From the NCBI GenBank assembly GCA_964642355.1, contig CAZXOU010000001.1, forward strand, positions 1-31,718: a stretch of DNA of 31,718 nt, given 5' to 3'. Positions 61-6,737 of this stretch are shown piece by piece (the first letter of the stretch is position 1; each line of letters opens with the position of its first letter). The notes under the pieces were generated by a model. That model made no database searches, was not told the DNA's origin, and saw only the letters and a list, made by a program, of their open reading frames with translations. Both the position numbers and the translations under genes were made by a program. This DNA is from an uncultured Gammaproteobacteria bacterium. Lineage in GTDB: Bacteria; Patescibacteriota; Patescibacteriia; UBA2169.

Positions 61-444
61 CTACACAGTCGCCTCAGCGAGAGGAGACCCCTCCCAAGCA
101 GGCGCATCATTTAATTGCGCAAATGCTTTACGCACCACCTCGATGCTTGGCCCAGCAATGCCGTAAAAGAAAACCATGGGCGGACTGCCGAATGAGTGGA
201 GCTTGACCAATCCCCGGCTTTCTCGAGCTGCTTCGGTGGTTATGCAAAGCTCCACTTCGCCTGCAACGACCTGGTCTGCTGCCTGCGCGTTGCTGTTCAC
301 AAGCTCAACCTGACACCCGAGGTTCCGCACCAAAGCCCTACCGGCAAGTACTTTTTGTGCTACGCTTTCGCTTATTGGAAGCTGTTCTCTGACTACGCTT
401 GGAGGGTTCAAGCGATTACTGAGTGTTTGTGTCTGAGCGTGCAT
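61..444 (-). CDS. Hypothetical protein resembling the C-terminal lobe of prephenate-dehydratase-like (type 2 periplasmic-binding fold) proteins; possibly internally deleted
   Basis: SD GGAGG 5 nt before ATG; GC-richer than flanks; segment VNSNAQAADQVVAGEVELCITTEAARESRGL resembles the PDT pattern S-x-A-E-A-A...A-I-A...GL (by eye); no N-terminal lobe or SHP motif. Confidence 0.4.
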   Translation of the reverse strand: MHAQTQTLSNRLNPPSVVREQLPISESVAQKVLAGRALVRNLGCQVELVNSNAQAADQVVAGEVELCITTEAARESRGLVKLHSFGSPPMVFFYGIAGPSIEVVRKAFAQLNDAPAWEGSPLAEATV

Positions 445-600
445 GACATCCTCCTATGTAATATATGTGAACCAGCTAAGAGTATGTATCAGGTACTTCG
501 CTTTTATTATTGCTTTACCTCCTTCGGTTAAATTGTTTAAGAACGATTTTCAGATTACTTATTATGGCAAAATATCAAAGAAATATGCATTTGTCAATGC

Positions 601-629
601 TTGACATTATCCCACTTTACATGTAAATT
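601..629 (+). promoter_or_regulatory. Sigma70-type promoter for tRNA-Tyr
   Basis: TTGACA (601-606), 17-nt spacer, TAAATT (624-629). Confidence 0.6.
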
Positions 630-680
630 TATACGATAATTAGCACATTGAATTAGTATAAAAACAACACTAATTTAGGT

Positions 681-765
681 GGGTCGGTACCCAAGTGGTC
701 AAAGGGAGCGGTCTGTAAAACCGTTGGCTCAGCCTTCGAGGGTTCGAATCCCTCCCGGCCCACCA
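681..765 (+). tRNA. tRNA-Tyr (GUA)
   Basis: Acceptor stem GGGTCGG/CCGGCCC, anticodon loop CT-GTA-AA, long variable arm GGC-TCA-GCC, T-loop GGTTCGAATCC, encoded CCA end. Confidence 0.96.
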
Positions 766-772
766 TTTATAT

Positions 773-805
773 GCCCTTGTTCGAAGTTGGACAAGGGCTT
801 TTTTT
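773..805 (+). terminator. Intrinsic terminator after tRNA-Tyr
   Basis: GCCCTTGT/ACAAGGGC stem followed by a T7 tract. Confidence 0.8.
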
Positions 806-2522
806 ATAAAAATTTCTCCAAAATCTTATTTCTCTTCAATTTCAAAGTCGGAGTAAGCAAATCATTTTCTTGAGTAAACTCATCTTTTATCAACTCAAAA
901 TGCCGAATCTGTTCAACTTCTGGAAAGTGATTTAGTTGCGCTCCTATCTCATGATCAAACAATCGCTTAGCCTCAACATTTTCTATAATTGATTCATGGT
1001 GATACTCTATACCCTTTTCCTCTGCCCACCTGCGAAGCTCGCTAAAATCAGGAACAATAATTGCGGAAATATGCTTTTCGTTATCTCCATATACCATAGC
1101 TTGCAAGATGAAACGGTTGATCTCCAGCTCTTGCTCAATTGGAACAGGAGCAACATTTTTTCCAGTTGAAAGTACAATCATTTCTTTTTTGCGTCCTGTA
1201 ATTTTCAAAAATCCATCTTCGCTTAATTCGCCAAGATCGCCTGTTAAAAACCATCCTTCACTATTTATGACCTCGTTTGTGGCTTGTTCGTTCTCATAAT
1301 ACCCTTTCATAATTAATTCGCCGCGAATTAGCACTTCCCCATCTTCCGCGATTTTAACTTCAACTCCTTCTAAGGTCTTGCCAACTGTGCCAAAACGATA
1401 TCCTTTAGCAATATTTGTAGAAACAACTGGCGAAGTTTCAGTTAATCCATATCCTTCTAAAATCAAAATTCCAATATCTTCAAAAAACTGCATAATGTCC
1501 GGCGAAAGCGCTGATCCTCCAGAAATAGCAAACTTGATTCTTCCGCCTAAGGAAGCGCGAATTTTTTTAAGTACAATTTTATCAAGTATATTAAAAATAG
1601 TTTCATCAAATCCTTTTAGTTCGTTCTTTCGCTTTTTAGTTCCAAGATCTAGGGCTTTATAGAATAATTTTCGCTTTAGATTTGAGCCGTGATTTGCTTT
1701 GTCTTGCACTGCATCATATACTTTTTCAAACACGCGTGGAACAGATATCATTATTGTTGGCTTGGCTTTTACAATATCATCTTTCATGGTTCGCTTGTCG
1801 CGGGAATAATAGATTGCAACACCTGACATTATAGGCACATATAGTCCTGCAGTTCTCTCCAAAGCATGAGACAAAGGCAAGAACGAAAAAAATCTGTCTT
1901 CTGACGTAACTTCTATAGATTTTTTTGCAGCCATTACATTGGAAAGAATATTTTTATGCGTAAGCATTACTCCTTTTGGCTTGCCAGTTGTTCCTGATGT
2001 GTAAATTATTGTATGAACATCATCTTCGCCAACCTCAACTGACTGTACATCTCCATCTATAAATAATTTTTTAAAAGCAACTACCTTGCCAGTTTCCTCA
2101 ATATTAGATTCATCAACATCTACTACCACAATCTTTTCAACTGGTAAAGCAAGCACTTCATCTTTATATGCCTGAAAAAATTCTTGTTCGATGATAAGCC
2201 ACTTTGCTTTTGTGTGCTCAACAATATATTTGATGTATTCTGGTCCATAGGTCGTGTGAATTGGAACATCTATTATGCCAAGTAAAGCGCATGCCAAATC
2301 AATAATTGCCCAATTTGGACTATTGGTAACCATGAACGCGATTTTGTCATTCTTACTTAATCCGCCATGGCTCAAACCTGCAGAAAGCTTAGAAACTCTT
2401 TGCTGAAGTTCAGAATACGAAATTACTTGATACTTGCCATCAACTAACTTTCCTAATGCTTCTTGATTGGGATATTCTTTAGCAATTTGTCTAAATTTAT
2501 GATATATATTTCCGTAATCCAT
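804..2522 (-). CDS. fadD: Long-chain fatty acid-CoA ligase (AMP-dependent synthetase)
   Basis: YTSGTTGKPKG, GYGLTE, TGDLG and GRKK motifs; start moved to ATG 2522 because the longer ORF reads through a terminator and promoter. Confidence 0.9.
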   Translation of the reverse strand: MDYGNIYHKFRQIAKEYPNQEALGKLVDGKYQVISYSELQQRVSKLSAGLSHGGLSKNDKIAFMVTNSPNWAIIDLACALLGIIDVPIHTTYGPEYIKYIVEHTKAKWLIIEQEFFQAYKDEVLALPVEKIVVVDVDESNIEETGKVVAFKKLFIDGDVQSVEVGEDDVHTIIYTSGTTGKPKGVMLTHKNILSNVMAAKKSIEVTSEDRFFSFLPLSHALERTAGLYVPIMSGVAIYYSRDKRTMKDDIVKAKPTIMISVPRVFEKVYDAVQDKANHGSNLKRKLFYKALDLGTKKRKNELKGFDETIFNILDKIVLKKIRASLGGRIKFAISGGSALSPDIMQFFEDIGILILEGYGLTETSPVVSTNIAKGYRFGTVGKTLEGVEVKIAEDGEVLIRGELIMKGYYENEQATNEVINSEGWFLTGDLGELSEDGFLKITGRKKEMIVLSTGKNVAPVPIEQELEINRFILQAMVYGDNEKHISAIIVPDFSELRRWAEEKGIEYHHESIIENVEAKRLFDHEIGAQLNHFPEVEQIRHFELIKDEFTQENDLLTPTLKLKRNKILEKFL

Positions 2523-2528
2523 AGTTCC

Positions 2529-2557
2529 ACTATACGCCAAAATAATCATTTTGACAA
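2529..2557 (-). promoter_or_regulatory. fadD promoter giving a leaderless mRNA
   Basis: TTGTCA (2557-2552), 17 nt, TATAGT (2534-2529), then 6 nt to ATG. Confidence 0.65.
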
Positions 2558-2600: not shown

Positions 2601-2813
2601 CTAGGCATATGTGCCATCTGGCTGTCGTCTGCGTTGATGCCAAACAGAACGTTGTTTTTTCTCGGAGCAATTAACTTTTTCCGGAGTACTTTTGCAAAAA
2701 TCTTCAAGATCCTTTCCGCTAGCTCCGCAATTAACACACATTAGAATAAATCCAGGACCTCCCCAACCAATACTAATTTTTCGTTTTTCTACGCAATGAG
2801 CTGAATATGACAT
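2601..2813 (-). CDS. 70-aa Cys-rich hypothetical protein (CxxC, 5 Cys) downstream of the T-box
   Basis: SD AAGGGGA 6 nt before ATG; lies between the T-box terminator and its own terminator. Confidence 0.65.
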   Translation of the reverse strand: MSYSAHCVEKRKISIGWGGPGFILMCVNCGASGKDLEDFCKSTPEKVNCSEKKQRSVWHQRRRQPDGTYA

Positions 2814-2847
2814 CGCATTTCCCCTTGGTTAAGTAAAATTAAAGAAC

Positions 2848-3190
2848 AAAAAATCCCCTCCTCAACACACAACTAAAAATTGTGCACGAAGGATGGGATT
2901 GTTTCCGCGGTACCACCTTGGTTGTTTAATCGTTTATGACGAATCTCTATAGTATCAAGTGAATTCAGGCATTTTATATTGAATATTTACCTTCAAAAGA
3001 TACAAAAAAATCCGTCAATAAAACGGATTAAACCACTTTACTGACTCTGACTCCGATTGCTCGGAACGACATCAGCTAGCCCTTTGATTACGGGGGCTTC
3101 CGGATCTACACTAACGCATAAATCACCTTGTCCAGCGAATGCTGGACGAAACGTGCCCAATCCCGCGAATGCGGGACACGCTTCATCGGT
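2848..3190 (-). ncRNA. T-box riboswitch (transcriptional type)
   Basis: AAGG-UGGUACC-GCGG T-box at 2919-2905 with CCUU partner; overlapping terminator 2900-2852 plus U-run; stem II 3124-3103; IIA/B pseudoknot CGG-AA-GCCC-CCG-UAAUCAAA-GGGC at 3102-3079; stem III 3033-2924. Confidence 0.85.
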
Positions 3191-3212
3191 TTTAAATATT
3201 GTTAATAAAAGC

Positions 3213-3240
3213 ACTATAGCACACTGACAGGATTTGTCAA
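3213..3240 (-). promoter_or_regulatory. Promoter for the T-box leader
   Basis: TTGACA (3240-3235), 16 nt, TATAGT (3218-3213) with extended TGn. Confidence 0.75.
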
Positions 3241-3290: not shown

Positions 3291-3533
3291 TTACTTAGCA
3301 AGCTTATTATACAGCCAAGCAAATACCCAACATCCAATTCCTGCATCAACAAACCCCCAAAGACCACCAATTACTGCTCCTGTAATACTTACTGAATAAC
3401 CAGGATATATCACCATAAATCCAAGAAGCTCTTTGCCATATCCAATATATGTGGCAATAATGGTTCCTATAAATATGCCTAAAGCTACTAAAATTCCTCC
3501 AGCTAAGGCAAATGCTTTTTTGTCTAATTTCAT
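3291..3533 (-). CDS. Small Gly-rich membrane protein of a family often annotated 'bacteriophage holin'
   Basis: KAFALAGG...YPGYSVS..G..IG..WGFVD..IG...FAWLYN pattern; SD AAAGGAG. Confidence 0.65.
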   Translation of the reverse strand: MKLDKKAFALAGGILVALGIFIGTIIATYIGYGKELLGFMVIYPGYSVSITGAVIGGLWGFVDAGIGCWVFAWLYNKLAK

Positions 3534-5110: not shown

Positions 5111-5151
5111 ATTATTATCATACATTAGTTTACGTAAATAAAAAAATCAAT

Positions 5152-5184
5152 AAAAAAAAGACGCTGACTTGTTCCGTCAACGCC
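5152..5184 (-). terminator. Intrinsic terminator after the Zn-ribbon micro-ORF
   Basis: GGCGTTGAC/GTCAGCGTC stem followed by a T8 tract. Confidence 0.75.
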
Positions 5185-5224
5185 CTTTTAAAAGATCTCT
5201 GCCATAGAAACGAGGTGTATGCCA

Positions 5225-5392
5225 TTAGGCAGCTACTAGGTACTTTTGACCAATCTGGTGTCGCCCGAGGCTGCATACGTCATCTCCATCTGCAAAGTAT
5301 CCACCACAGATGGTGCACTTGCATCCGCTGAAGATTCCGCAGGCCACTGTGACGGTCTTCTCCGGCTTCGGCAGTACCAAGATGTTCGCCAT
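5225..5392 (-). CDS. Small putative Zn-ribbon protein (about 55 aa; start uncertain)
   Basis: C-x-C-x-x-C-G-G...D-V-C...H motif; ends just before a terminator. Confidence 0.45.
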   Translation of the reverse strand: MANILVLPKPEKTVTVACGIFSGCKCTICGGYFADGDDVCSLGRHQIGQKYLVAA

Positions 5393-5526
5393 CGCTTTTG
5401 GCTCTTCTGAGGCGACATAATAAACACTACCCCATTCGTACCCGAGGAAGCGCCGGATTGGTTGTATATGACATATACCCCATATTGTAGCAGGGTGATT
5501 ACAAGGTATTGAACCATTACACAAAC

Positions 5527-5555
5527 TTGACATTATAAGGTAATAATGATATCGT
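5527..5555 (+). promoter_or_regulatory. Promoter for the J-domain operon
   Basis: TTGACA, 17 nt, TATCGT with extended TGn; boxA-like TGCTCTTTTAC at 5562-5572. Confidence 0.55.
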
Positions 5556-5604
5556 AATATTTGCTCTTTTACTCAAAAAATTACTCTTTCCAAGAGGTCT
5601 TTAG

Positions 5605-6060
5605 ATGATAACCTATTATCAAATACTTGGTATTACGCAAGAGGCTTCTCGCGCAGAAATTAGAGGCGCATACGGTAAACTGGCAATATTGTATCACCCT
5701 GATACAACGTCAGATCCAAATGCAGAAAAAAAATTTGCGCGTGCTAGTAAGGCATATAGGACTCTTTCTAGCGAAAAAAGACGTCCAAAGTATGATGCAA
5801 AGCTTGCTTTGCCAACATCTATACAAGATTTGTTTGGGCGTCACCCATTAGGGCAAAAAATGCTCCAGACATTTCTTGATCGTGCTCCAGCAGAACCAAG
5901 ACCAGGCATTGATCTGTTTGAGGTCAAACCTGTGTCTGAGGTCTCCATCCCTGTTCCAGGCAATATAGAATTAGAATGGTGCGAAATTCCAAATCACGGT
6001 GATCCTGGTGTAAACGATGCGCCAAATGGTTCACTGTTCATCTATATGAGGAGAAAATAA
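5605..6060 (+). CDS. Miniaturised DnaJ-family (J-domain) protein
   Basis: YYQILG...YHPD...AYRTLS...YD J-domain; C-terminal PRPGIDL and GDPG...GSLFIYM resemble DnaJ C-terminal-domain fragments; no CxxCxGxG repeats. Confidence 0.8.
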   Translation: MITYYQILGITQEASRAEIRGAYGKLAILYHPDTTSDPNAEKKFARASKAYRTLSSEKRRPKYDAKLALPTSIQDLFGRHPLGQKMLQTFLDRAPAEPRPGIDLFEVKPVSEVSIPVPGNIELEWCEIPNHGDPGVNDAPNGSLFIYMRRK

Positions 6061-6737
6061 TGACCGAGCGTACTCTCGTTCCCGTAGATGTAAAGAACCC
6101 CGTGCAAGCACTTCAAACCCTCAATACCCCTTACGCGGCCAGCACTCAATTGGCTACCGAAGCCAAGCTCCTGGACGATGTTGTGGCGGAAATTGATGAT
6201 GTGAGCCAGGCTTACGCTTTGATGATCGTCCACATGACCCCTGCGCGCATGGTGGAGCTCTTGGCGGAAAGGGAGGAGTTGTCCTCGGCCGCTATACTCA
6301 CCTGTCCGTTCGAAACGGTGGTGGACACCCTGGTGTTCTACTTCCAGAAGCACGGCGCAGAGGAGACTCACCACGATGCCCTGCTTCGGTGGATGATGAA
6401 GCTCACCGAACACGGCGACTTCATGGATATCCTGGAGCAGCCGATCGGCGATGCGACCGTGATTGAGCACGCCTGTGCCGCTGTGTGGGCTGAATCCGGC
6501 AGTGTGGATATGATGACCGCGGATAGGTTCGAACAGATCGGCATTAATCCGGAGGATGCTTTCGACATCCTCAGCGACATGTTCACTGATGGAAAGTTCC
6601 CCAAGCTCCTGGAGCATGTCGTCGGTCTAAGCCCGCGTCGCGCCAGCACCGAGCTCGAACAGCTCGAACAGTCCAAGGACAAGTTCACGGAGGCTCGCAG
6701 AGCCGTGGATGCGGCTACAGACAGCGTTCTGGACTAG
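6060..6737 (+). CDS. Acidic hypothetical protein, 225 aa, GC-rich
   Basis: TAATG overlap with the J-domain gene; SD GAGGAG; sampled lines 57-62% GC. Confidence 0.75.
   Translation: MTERTLVPVDVKNPVQALQTLNTPYAASTQLATEAKLLDDVVAEIDDVSQAYALMIVHMTPARMVELLAEREELSSAAILTCPFETVVDTLVFYFQKHGAEETHHDALLRWMMKLTEHGDFMDILEQPIGDATVIEHACAAVWAESGSVDMMTADRFEQIGINPEDAFDILSDMFTDGKFPKLLEHVVGLSPRRASTELEQLEQSKDKFTEARRAVDAATDSVLD

Follow-up and report, generated by a model that had tools for sequence, protein, structure and literature searches.

What does a T-box riboswitch control when the reading frame behind it encodes neither an aminoacyl-tRNA synthetase nor a protein of amino acid biosynthesis or transport? The question is posed by a 31.7-kb stretch of DNA (31,718 nt; contig CAZXOU010000001.1 of assembly GCA_964642355.1, from an uncultured bacterium placed by GTDB among the Patescibacteriota), hereafter the window, in which a T-box leader precedes a 70-codon, Cys-rich open reading frame (ORF70). 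A preliminary description had drawn attention to this pairing, and it stands: ORF70 belongs to no known family and has no homologue (that is, it is an ORFan). Overall, the locus is best explained as a T-box cassette for tRNA-Trp whose cargo, a fused anthranilate synthase gene (trpE(G)), was replaced by ORF70, an account that we consider probable.

The cassette occupies positions 3240-2555 of the minus strand, on which all features below lie unless stated otherwise, and forms one self-contained unit of promoter, leader, ribosome-binding site, ORF70 and terminator. Its promoter (3240-3213) is of the sigma-70 type (TTGACA-16-(TG)cTATAGT; 11/12 match, with a TG extension). The leader, ~365 nt in length, ends in an intrinsic terminator with a U-tract (2900-2848; -15 kcal/mol or better); a Shine–Dalgarno (SD) sequence, AAGGGG (2826-2821), comes next, 7 bases before the start codon. 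ORF70 itself runs from the ATG at 2813 to 2601 (stop codon 2603-2601; MSYSAHCVEKRKISIGWGGPGFILMCVNCGASGKDLEDFCKSTPEKVNCSEKKQRSVWHQRRRQPDGTYA), and a second intrinsic terminator (2592-2555; -15.8 kcal/mol) closes the unit. Every feature previously listed for the locus, namely promoter, T-box leader with terminator, SD, 70-aa Cys-rich ORF and a terminator of its own, was recovered.

Identity and relatives of the leader

The leader carries an exact T-box core (AAGGUGGUACCGCGG, 2919-2905), which holds the sole exact GGTGGNACCGCG in the window. When the window was searched against Rfam at gathering thresholds, no T-box was called and a tRNA-Tyr was the only match. In E-value mode, the T-box model RF00230 (gathering threshold, 93 bits) aligned with the 3′ half of the leader only, at 23.9 bits and an E-value of about 0.002-0.005, and the 5′ domain searched alone returned nothing meaningful. 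The Infernal check recommended at the outset hence left the window leader below threshold, but gave a full-length match for a more diverged homologue: the leader of a metagenomic locus, L069, matches RF00230 from one end to the other (45.1 bits, E-value 1.6e-8), the alignment taking in kink-turn (K-turn), Stem I, Stem II, Stem IIA with the F-box, Stem III and the T-box.

Examination of contigs encoding the closest relatives of the FadD-like protein encoded downstream of the cassette revealed a TARA scaffold (L041; FadD with 72% amino acid identity) with a T-box core upstream of fadD. The leaders of the window and L041 share their T-box and terminator as well as blocks of 24, 34 and 48 identical bases. 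A scan of metagenomes with a pattern specific to the T-box flanks of this family produced 28 hits, 26 of them unrelated sequences having the T-box core alone in common; the others were L049, identical to L041, and L069. The entire ~365-nt leader is homologous to the L041/L049 and L069 leaders (nhmmer, E about 1e-112), and across 83 loci nhmmer confined the family to the window, L041, L049 and L069. A first metagenome scan, for two GCAUUCGC loops together with the T-box core, had given no match; these loops were later recognised as a duplication specific to the window. Neither the loci of further FadD relatives (L002, L003, L039, L040, L071-L076, L082, L083) nor the scans of viral contigs yielded a family member. 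In agreement with the preliminary description, the surroundings of serS, proS and thrS held no other T-box core and no Rfam T-box match.

Judged from these alignments, the leader is more than a chance match, its sub-threshold Rfam score notwithstanding, and belongs to a small divergent T-box family so far found only in a few metagenomic bacteria resembling the candidate phyla radiation (CPR) or Patescibacteria. By its predicted architecture, the element functions like a T-box and, on most structural criteria, is one, closest to the transcriptional T-boxes that contain Stem II, with a Stem III of unusual size. We call it a variant rather than a routine member because it falls short of the Rfam threshold, lacks the distal platform of Stem I and, in the window, lacks the K-turn. 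The family scores below threshold in Rfam and is therefore invisible to standard annotation.

The domain map of the window leader was transferred from the alignment of L069 to RF00230. Stem I (3187-3148) is truncated and has no distal platform. Its lower helix (3181-3177/3155-3151) and upper helix (3176-3171/3166-3161) are topped by a loop of 4-9 nt in all three homologues, and in the L069 alignment 7 nt stand for the 49 RF00230 positions of distal Stem I that include the tRNA-elbow platform. Across the three homologues, four of the five pairs in the lower helix change on both sides, with 100% pairing retained, whereas the 3′ bulge UUGGG (3160-3156) is invariant. RF00230 aligns its specifier loop to this bulge in L069; the loop is devoid of the usual S-turn nucleotides. 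At the base of Stem I, L041 and L069 possess an intact K-turn (AUC-UAU-GA...GA-GAU) that is recognised by the Rfam model. In the window the base is a plain helix, the 3′ partner of the K-turn having been replaced, and where the relatives carry the 3′ half of the motif sits an additional, genome-specific hairpin of 18 nt, H2 (3147-3130; GUCCAGC-AUUC-GCUGGAC), which is absent from the leaders of L041 and L069. H2 repeats the top of Stem I in tandem and is identical to 3177-3148 at 15/17 of the first nucleotides and at 19/30 overall. Within this duplication (~30 nt; 3118-3177, minus strand), one stem pair of the copy has undergone a compensatory change from C-G to A-U.

Downstream of H2, the equivalent of Stem II (3124-3103), a 9-bp hairpin with a GUUA loop, aligns with Stem II of RF00230 in L069 and is 100% paired in the three homologues. 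It is succeeded by the Stem IIA/B pseudoknot (3102-3078), composed of IIA (CGG 3102-3100/CCG 3093-3091) and IIB (AGCCC 3098-3094/GGGCU 3082-3078), the latter with one compensatory C-G to A-U change. An F-box-like CCGUAA (3093-3088) is aligned, via L069, to CCGUUA of the model, and the leader hence has both the Stem II hairpin and the F-box pseudoknot expected of a T-box; the role of the F-box has been described (PMC7583486). Next come a family-specific inserted hairpin, H5 (3076-3040; outer helix GCUGAU/GUCAGU, inner helix with a GCAA cap), which the Rfam model handles as a 41-nt insertion, and a linker with a conserved AAAGUGG before position 3033. In the minimum free energy fold of the full leader, an extended Stem III (3033-2924) consists of two long-range helices, the outer one pairing GUUUAAUC (3033-3026) with GAUUAAAC (2931-2924) and the other UGACGGAU (3017-3010) with AUUCGUCA (2944-2937), and encloses the hairpin Stem X (3003-2952), which has two compensatory pairs at its base. 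In the Rfam alignment, the Stem III strands of the model fall on the outer helix, GUUUAAU(C)/(G)AUUAAAC, and are separated by a ~95-nt insertion. Over the middle domains, 99.4% of the positions pair, compared with 27-40% when the partners are slid, and the three homologues provide three compensatory pairs, located in IIB and at the base of the inner hairpin.

An alternative fold of the Stem III 5′ strand is a terminator-like hairpin, T1 (3029-3004; AAUCCGU/ACGGAUU followed by U7; -8.8 kcal/mol), which excludes, and is excluded by, both the long-range Stem III and a hairpin A (3045-3014; -12.0 kcal/mol). T1 and its U-tract are identical in all three members, and the ~48-nt block to which they belong is the same in the window and L041 and matches at 46/48 positions in L069 (window 3004-3045; L041 556-600; L069 1879-1835). 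This block may adopt three folds, namely a 13-bp hairpin (GUCAGUAAAGUGG/CCGUUUUAUUGAC), a T1-type hairpin with U7-8 and the Stem III 5′ strand; it holds a second UGGU as well. T1 would fold while the 3′ strand of Stem III has yet to be transcribed, and we propose it as a candidate checkpoint for pausing or early termination. Three other interpretations of the region were rejected, since L069 aligns as one T-box with T1 inside Stem III and the parts are co-conserved: the 5′ 190 nt as an element in its own right that ends at T1, be it a small RNA (sRNA) or another riboswitch; a second, degenerate T-box in tandem, whose bulge would be the second UGGU (AAAG-UGGUUUA-AUCCGU); and an ultrashort Stem I in which the T1 loop presents AUU. 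A local "Stem III" (AUUCGU/ACGAUU) suggested by the Rfam alignment of the window alone was likewise discarded, its 3′ strand varying without compensation in L041 and L069.

tRNA specificity and cargo

Which tRNA would such a leader read? We propose UGG (Trp; 3159-3157) as the specifier, because it occupies the +0 position under the TBDB rule, according to which positions 2-4, counted from the bulge's 3′ end, make up the specifier (PMC7778990), because the UUGGG bulge is invariant between co-varying helices, and because a purine (G3156) comes next. The triplet is the same in the three homologues, and the bulge has stayed constant while the flanking Stem I helices differ completely among the three lineages. 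At the other contact site, the T-box bulge reads UGGUACC (2915-2909), conforming to UGGNACC. Its UGGU had been taken to exclude tRNA-Trp, which has G73 as discriminator, a deduction that fails: 46% of Trp T-boxes in TBDB have U at this position, pairing with G73 by wobble (PMC7778990). The trpE(G) cargo of L041 fits a Trp specifier, too. Most likely, then, the leader represents a trp-type rather than an ileS-type T-box. The only tRNA gene in the window, tRNA-Tyr(GUA) (681-765, plus strand; long variable arm, encoded CCA), is situated just downstream of fadD on the opposite strand; its A73 fits UGGU, but the specifier position holds no Tyr codon.

Two other assignments were weighed. Of the candidate specifiers named beforehand, AUU (3161-3159) would make the element an ileS-type T-box for tRNA-Ile (A73) that was captured by an ORFan; a variant of this idea places AUU in the T1 loop. 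It can draw on the Watson-Crick pair that UGGU forms with A73, on a Stem I as short as that of actinobacterial ileS T-boxes, and on the T1 loop UUUAUUG, which ends in AUU-G and where the local Rfam alignment of the window sets the base of Stem I. However, A3161 is paired within the co-varying upper helix, and in the full-length alignment of L069 Stem I is the K-turn hairpin with UUGGG and T1 an insertion in Stem III. Moreover, the cargo in the relative L041 is trpE(G) instead of ileS, UGGU is common among Trp T-boxes, and the expression platform is a terminator rather than an SD sequestrator. With UGG retained and AUU dropped, a tRNA-Ile sensor is highly improbable, and of the earlier proposal of an ORFan with an orphaned, ileS-type T-box, the orphaned state agrees with the comparative data whereas the ileS type conflicts with the L041 cargo and the terminator platform. 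A specifier in the -1 frame, UUG (3160-3158), would direct the leader to tRNA-Leu: the triplet is within the invariant bulge, bacterial tRNA-Leu offers A73 for a Watson-Crick pair with UGGU, and TBDB permits -1 frames (PMC7778990). Yet the +0 frame is the usual one in TBDB and the L041 cargo is an enzyme of the tryptophan pathway, and we judge tRNA-Leu to be an improbable ligand.

Behind the L041 leader lies the gene for TrpE(G), a fused anthranilate synthase of 715 aa (993 bits with NF010081, whose cut-off is 645; 939 bits with TIGR01815), and then come a terminator, a promoter and a leaderless fadD. The last terminator and promoter are homologous to window 2592-2523, and the cassette-closing terminator of the window matches that after trpE(G) (L041 2981-3006) in both position and sequence. 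Outside the T-box unit, the fadD-like acyl-CoA ligase gene of the window (804-2522, ATG at 2522) has a promoter separate from that of the leader, as noted before (TTGTCA-17-TATAGT, 2557-2529); the -10 box ends 6-8 nt before the ATG, an arrangement kept in L041 (window 2522-2557; L041 3018-3056), and the fadD mRNA is probably leaderless and a transcription unit of its own. L069 presents a third cargo (248-1630, minus strand), consisting of genes for a YbdK/GCS2-like carboxylate-amine ligase (275 aa) and a GGACT/AIG2-like protein (155 aa). Across the relatives, the leader promoter architecture and the leader terminator are conserved in L041 and L069, and the cargo differs. A downstream gene for the metabolism of the specifier amino acid is present in L041, not in the window.

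Homology between the window and L041 falls into two stretches, one from the leader through its terminator and the other beginning at the downstream terminator and reaching into fadD. The intervening DNA comprises 2.2 kb of trpE(G) in L041 and, in the window, 245 nt, nearly all of it ORF70 (a 213-nt ORFan). Searches with ORF70 by blastn, tblastx and tblastn, covering L041, L069 and all other loci examined, detected no similarity to trpE(G) or to any other sequence there. As judged from these boundaries, the window arrangement is a non-homologous replacement of trpE(G) and not a simple erosion of trpE. The ancestral cargo upstream of fadD was most likely the fused trpE(G), as in L041, and we regard it as quite likely that the leader is a Trp T-box with a swapped cargo.

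The cassette lies in a variable setting. In L083, genes for tsf, a pyrH-like protein, gap, a patatin, proS and serS are directly followed by fadD; because serS abuts fadD there, window 8867-2560 represents a ~6.3-kb variable insert. It contains genes for a DnaJ-domain protein, two unknown ORFs (one with 57% GC), a GIY-YIG protein, greA, a 168-aa ORFan and a holin_4-like protein as well as the T-box cassette, and by gene order forms a variable island, the core region around it being syntenic.

On the proposed mechanism, which follows general T-box biology, the CCA anticodon of tRNA-Trp would pair with UGG 3159-3157 in the bulge of the truncated Stem I, assisted by Stem II and the IIA/B pseudoknot. 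If the tRNA is uncharged, its free 3′ end could pair with UGGU (2915-2912), through a G73:U wobble or through A73, and this pairing would stabilise the weak antiterminator (2919-2889) over the terminator (2900-2848), so that polymerase reads into the cargo. In the window lineage, trpE(G) would have given way to ORF70, and the leader has lost the 3′ half of the K-turn, with a duplicated hairpin in its place.

Switch, small protein and rival explanations

The antiterminator (2919-2889) comprises helices A1 (AAGG 2919-2916/CCUU 2892-2889) and A2 (GCGG 2908-2905/CCAU 2896-2893). As CCCAUCCUU (2897-2889) is common to its 3′ strand and to the 5′ strand of the terminator, which itself has an internal mismatch, the two structures are mutually exclusive. 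Two contigs of other assemblies, from two samples (L079 and L080), differ from the window by a single base: they carry G2894, as do L041 and L069, which restores a C-G pair in A2. When the antiterminator fold was constrained, the G allele reached -5.2 kcal/mol and the A allele -1.4 kcal/mol, with A1 not formed in the structure returned for the latter. Because the K-turn is missing and A2894 weakens the antiterminator, the switch may be dead, and the prospects that it still responds to tRNA in the window genome are evenly poised. The leader was nevertheless preserved: identity between the window and L041 is 86% in the leader, against 69.5% of nucleotides and 45% of four-fold sites in fadD, and in 278 aligned columns the window shows 15 lineage-specific substitutions, compared with 12 in L041 and 22 in L069, i.e. 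no elevated number. By this measure, the leader is a sequence that was under purifying selection until recently.

The Cys-rich ORF70 contains H6-C7, C26xxC29, C40 and C49. It matched no Pfam or NCBIfam family and, in a set of 5.8 billion proteins searched by k-mers and HMMER, only itself. An exhaustive phmmer search against 1.84 billion representative proteins returned no homologue; one hit, P0003, a repeat-rich 803-aa protein in which 15 residues were matched nine times, was dismissed as chance. Among all PDB chains (phmmer, E up to 10), two chance matches were the only result, to cyanovirin and thioredoxin 2. An ATG-initiated ORF of at least 70 codons arose in 0.5% of dinucleotide shuffles of the spacer (0.9% with any start codon; 0.16% of composition-matched random sequences). 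The codon score is +0.157 in frame and negative in the other two frames, a value in the range of island genes (0.18 for the 168-aa ORFan, -0.01 for the GIY-YIG gene) and under the 5th percentile of core genes. The gene caller used by the Joint Genome Institute (JGI) picked a 48-aa ORF in another frame on its own contig of this locus (L078), and a single-sequence AlphaFold2 model of ORF70 attained a predicted local distance difference test score (pLDDT) of 59, judged too weak for a fold search. On balance, we lean slightly towards ORF70 being translated into a functional protein.

Several points weigh against a Trp T-box with an exchanged cargo. The RF00230 scores of 23.9, 29.9 and 45.1 bits for the window, L041 and L069 are far under the gathering threshold of 93, and with only three distinct homologues the power to detect covariation is low; the long-range helices of Stem III are invariant and draw their support from conservation and model alignment. 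In the window the 5′ GAUGA of the K-turn (3187-3183) is kept and the 3′ GA has become UC, and the K-turn is reported to be essential for T-boxes with a short Stem I and Stem II (PMC7583486). A2894 introduces a C.A mismatch into antiterminator helix A2. As to specificity, UUG (Leu, A73) in the -1 frame of the bulge would pair with UGGU by Watson-Crick, a tRNA-Trp gene, sought in the related loci examined for its anticodon and discriminator, was not found, and the L069 cargo has no obvious link to tryptophan. Finally, the direction of the cargo change, with trpE(G) as the ancestral state, derives from a single relative.

What the exchange left behind can be read in two ways. ORF70 may be a small Cys-rich, possibly zinc-binding protein induced by uncharged tRNA-Trp, a functional analogue of anti-TRAP; this reading, held tentatively, refines the cargo-replacement account and does not exclude it. 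It is favoured by an intact cassette, in which promoter and terminator flank an ATG with an SD spaced 7 nt from it, by an ORF whose 70 codons take up the 245-nt spacer, as happens in 0.5-0.9% of shuffles only, by a codon score that is positive in the correct frame alone and similar to those of island genes, and by a leader without excess substitutions. The population also harbours G2894, the allele that leaves the antiterminator intact, and a Trp T-box over the small zinc-binding anti-TRAP is a precedent. On the other side, ORF70 lacks a homologue, so that conservation of the protein cannot be demonstrated, the JGI caller chose the 48-aa frame (L078), the pLDDT of 59 is poor, no PDB chain resembles the protein, that of anti-TRAP included, and the K-turn is lost and the antiterminator weakened by the window allele. 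Alternatively, leader and short ORF may be undecayed leftovers of a lost trpE(G), with transcription always stopping at the terminator(s) of the leader, a scenario that is possible rather than probable. In its favour are the lost 3′ half of the K-turn and the hairpin inserted at the junction of Stem I and Stem II, the C.A mismatch in the antiterminator, the internal mismatch in the terminator and the status of ORF70 as an ORFan within a variable insert; CPR-type genomes, in addition, commonly lack amino acid biosynthesis. Apart from those sites, however, the window leader is no more diverged than that of L041, for which reason the period of neutral drift must be very short, and the 245-nt spacer is not recognisable as trpE debris but holds an improbably long ORF with a good SD.

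A more mundane explanation would be an artefact, either a misassembly joining leader and ORF or a 5′ part of 190 nt that is an sRNA ending at T1, followed by a T-box fragment. Three MEGAHIT contigs end within 2835-2855, and T1 resembles a terminator. But the JGI contig L078, which is independent, is 100% identical to the window across 8838-2426 and thereby spans the leader-ORF70-fadD junction, which on these grounds is real and disposes of the misassembly between terminator and ORF envisaged at the outset. The 5′ and 3′ parts, furthermore, are co-conserved in three lineages and jointly match one T-box model, and no promoter lies between T1 and the T-box. We hold either form of artefact to be most improbable. 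The MEGAHIT contig ends themselves (L001, L079 and L080, from two samples), which start or end within 20 nt of the U-tract of the leader terminator, are without the k-1 overlap expected for a simple graph branch; a coverage drop or structural variation among strains could lie behind them.

A broader generalisation is more doubtful. The leader might be a hitherto undescribed, portable Trp-tRNA-sensing cassette of CPR-like bacteria, re-used across cargos, with a platform-less Stem I, a giant Stem III that includes a pause or terminator hairpin, and a read-out by transcription termination. Here it would drive a lineage-specific Cys-rich microprotein, produced solely while tRNA-Trp is uncharged, and this microprotein, by analogy, might act as a regulatory or stress factor with anti-TRAP-like logic in a host of reduced genome that has no trpE(G) at this site.

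Beyond the cassette, the window encodes rpsB, tsf, a pyrH-like protein, gap, a patatin-like protein, proS, serS, prfA, prmC, dnaE and thrS. No known protein exceeds about 70% identity to its FadD, and the best named matches are metagenome-assembled genomes from Crystal Geyser, Parcubacteria and Patescibacteria. Directly upstream of the leader promoter, an 80-aa protein with two transmembrane segments (3291-3533, minus strand) scores 71.8 bits with NCBIfam holin_4 (cut-off, 70), with no other phage genes evident nearby. A 225-aa ORF (6060-6737, plus strand) without a Pfam family has 57% GC, and 71% GC at third codon positions, in a genome of ~37% GC; its codon score is near zero, and by composition it looks foreign. 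Between the GIY-YIG and DnaJ-domain genes, ~480 nt (5126-5604) hold no confident gene, gave no Rfam match and have a fold z-score of -1.6. On the minus strand, this stretch has a Cys-rich ORF of 55 aa that starts at an internal Met (MANILVLPKPEKTVTVACGIFSGCKCTICGG...), and a small zinc-ribbon protein is its possible product.

Comparison with known T-box systems

T-boxes have been described almost entirely from Firmicutes and Actinobacteria, and a full-text literature search found no report joining a T-box with CPR, Parcubacteria or Patescibacteria. The leader family points to the use of T-boxes by CPR-like bacteria, to a terminator-type T-box that, in the relatives at least, can do without the tRNA-elbow platform of Stem I, and to one type of leader serving unrelated cargos.

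In domain order, the leader corresponds to the class I transcriptional T-boxes with Stem II and IIA/B (B. subtilis tyrS, the trp operons of Firmicutes, RF00230). Common to both are the K-turn (in the relatives only), a specifier-bearing Stem I, Stem II, the IIA/B F-box, Stem III, a 14-nt T-box with UGGNACC and the competition between antiterminator and terminator, as well as, in L041, control over a trp-biosynthesis gene. In contrast to class I, Stem I is a mere ~40 nt with a bare 5-nt bulge, without S-turn context, and has no distal T-loop elbow platform; a 41-nt hairpin follows the pseudoknot, Stem III contains a ~95-nt insertion with a terminator-like hairpin and U7-8, and the model scores are 24-45 bits against a gathering threshold of 93. 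The hosts are CPR-like, and the window leader has lost the K-turn and precedes an ORFan.

A truncated Stem I without elbow platform is also known from the actinobacterial ileS T-boxes (class II, translational; Mycobacterium, Nocardia; 6UFG, 6UFM), which decode by means of the K-turn, Stem II and the IIA/B pseudoknot with the F-box (PMC7583486, PMC11297988). These elements sequester the SD and sense tRNA-Ile (AUC), whereas the present leader ends in a Rho-independent terminator and carries UGG. About 20 nt separate the end of its U-tract hairpin from the SD (2826-2821), which is not part of the switch. Stem I is short in both, but here the loop position is taken by UGG, and AUU includes a base that is paired. 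Stem II, a plain 9-bp hairpin, shows no evident S-turn, and no closer sequence relationship to the ileS elements was detectable.

For the pairing of a Trp T-box with ORF70, the anti-TRAP operon of B. subtilis is the nearest precedent in layout: there, a Trp T-box controls rtpA (yczA), which encodes the 53-aa Cys-rich, zinc-binding anti-TRAP and no enzyme or transporter (PMC10327191). Hence, the preliminary statement that T-boxes almost always regulate synthetase, biosynthesis or transport genes does not support a high novelty of the pairing. ORF70 and anti-TRAP share no sequence similarity, and ORF70 has one CxxC only, without the paired DnaJ-like CxxCxGxG motifs of anti-TRAP. To our knowledge, TRAP itself is not known in CPR bacteria, and no TRAP-like (mtrB) ORF was seen among the ORFs of the window. 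If ORF70 is a leftover, the locus offers a clean snapshot of a riboswitch outliving its gene. If, instead, it is a microprotein controlled by tRNA-Trp, it would provide a handle on how symbionts with tiny genomes sense their amino acid supply and would constitute a second, independent case of the logic embodied by anti-TRAP.

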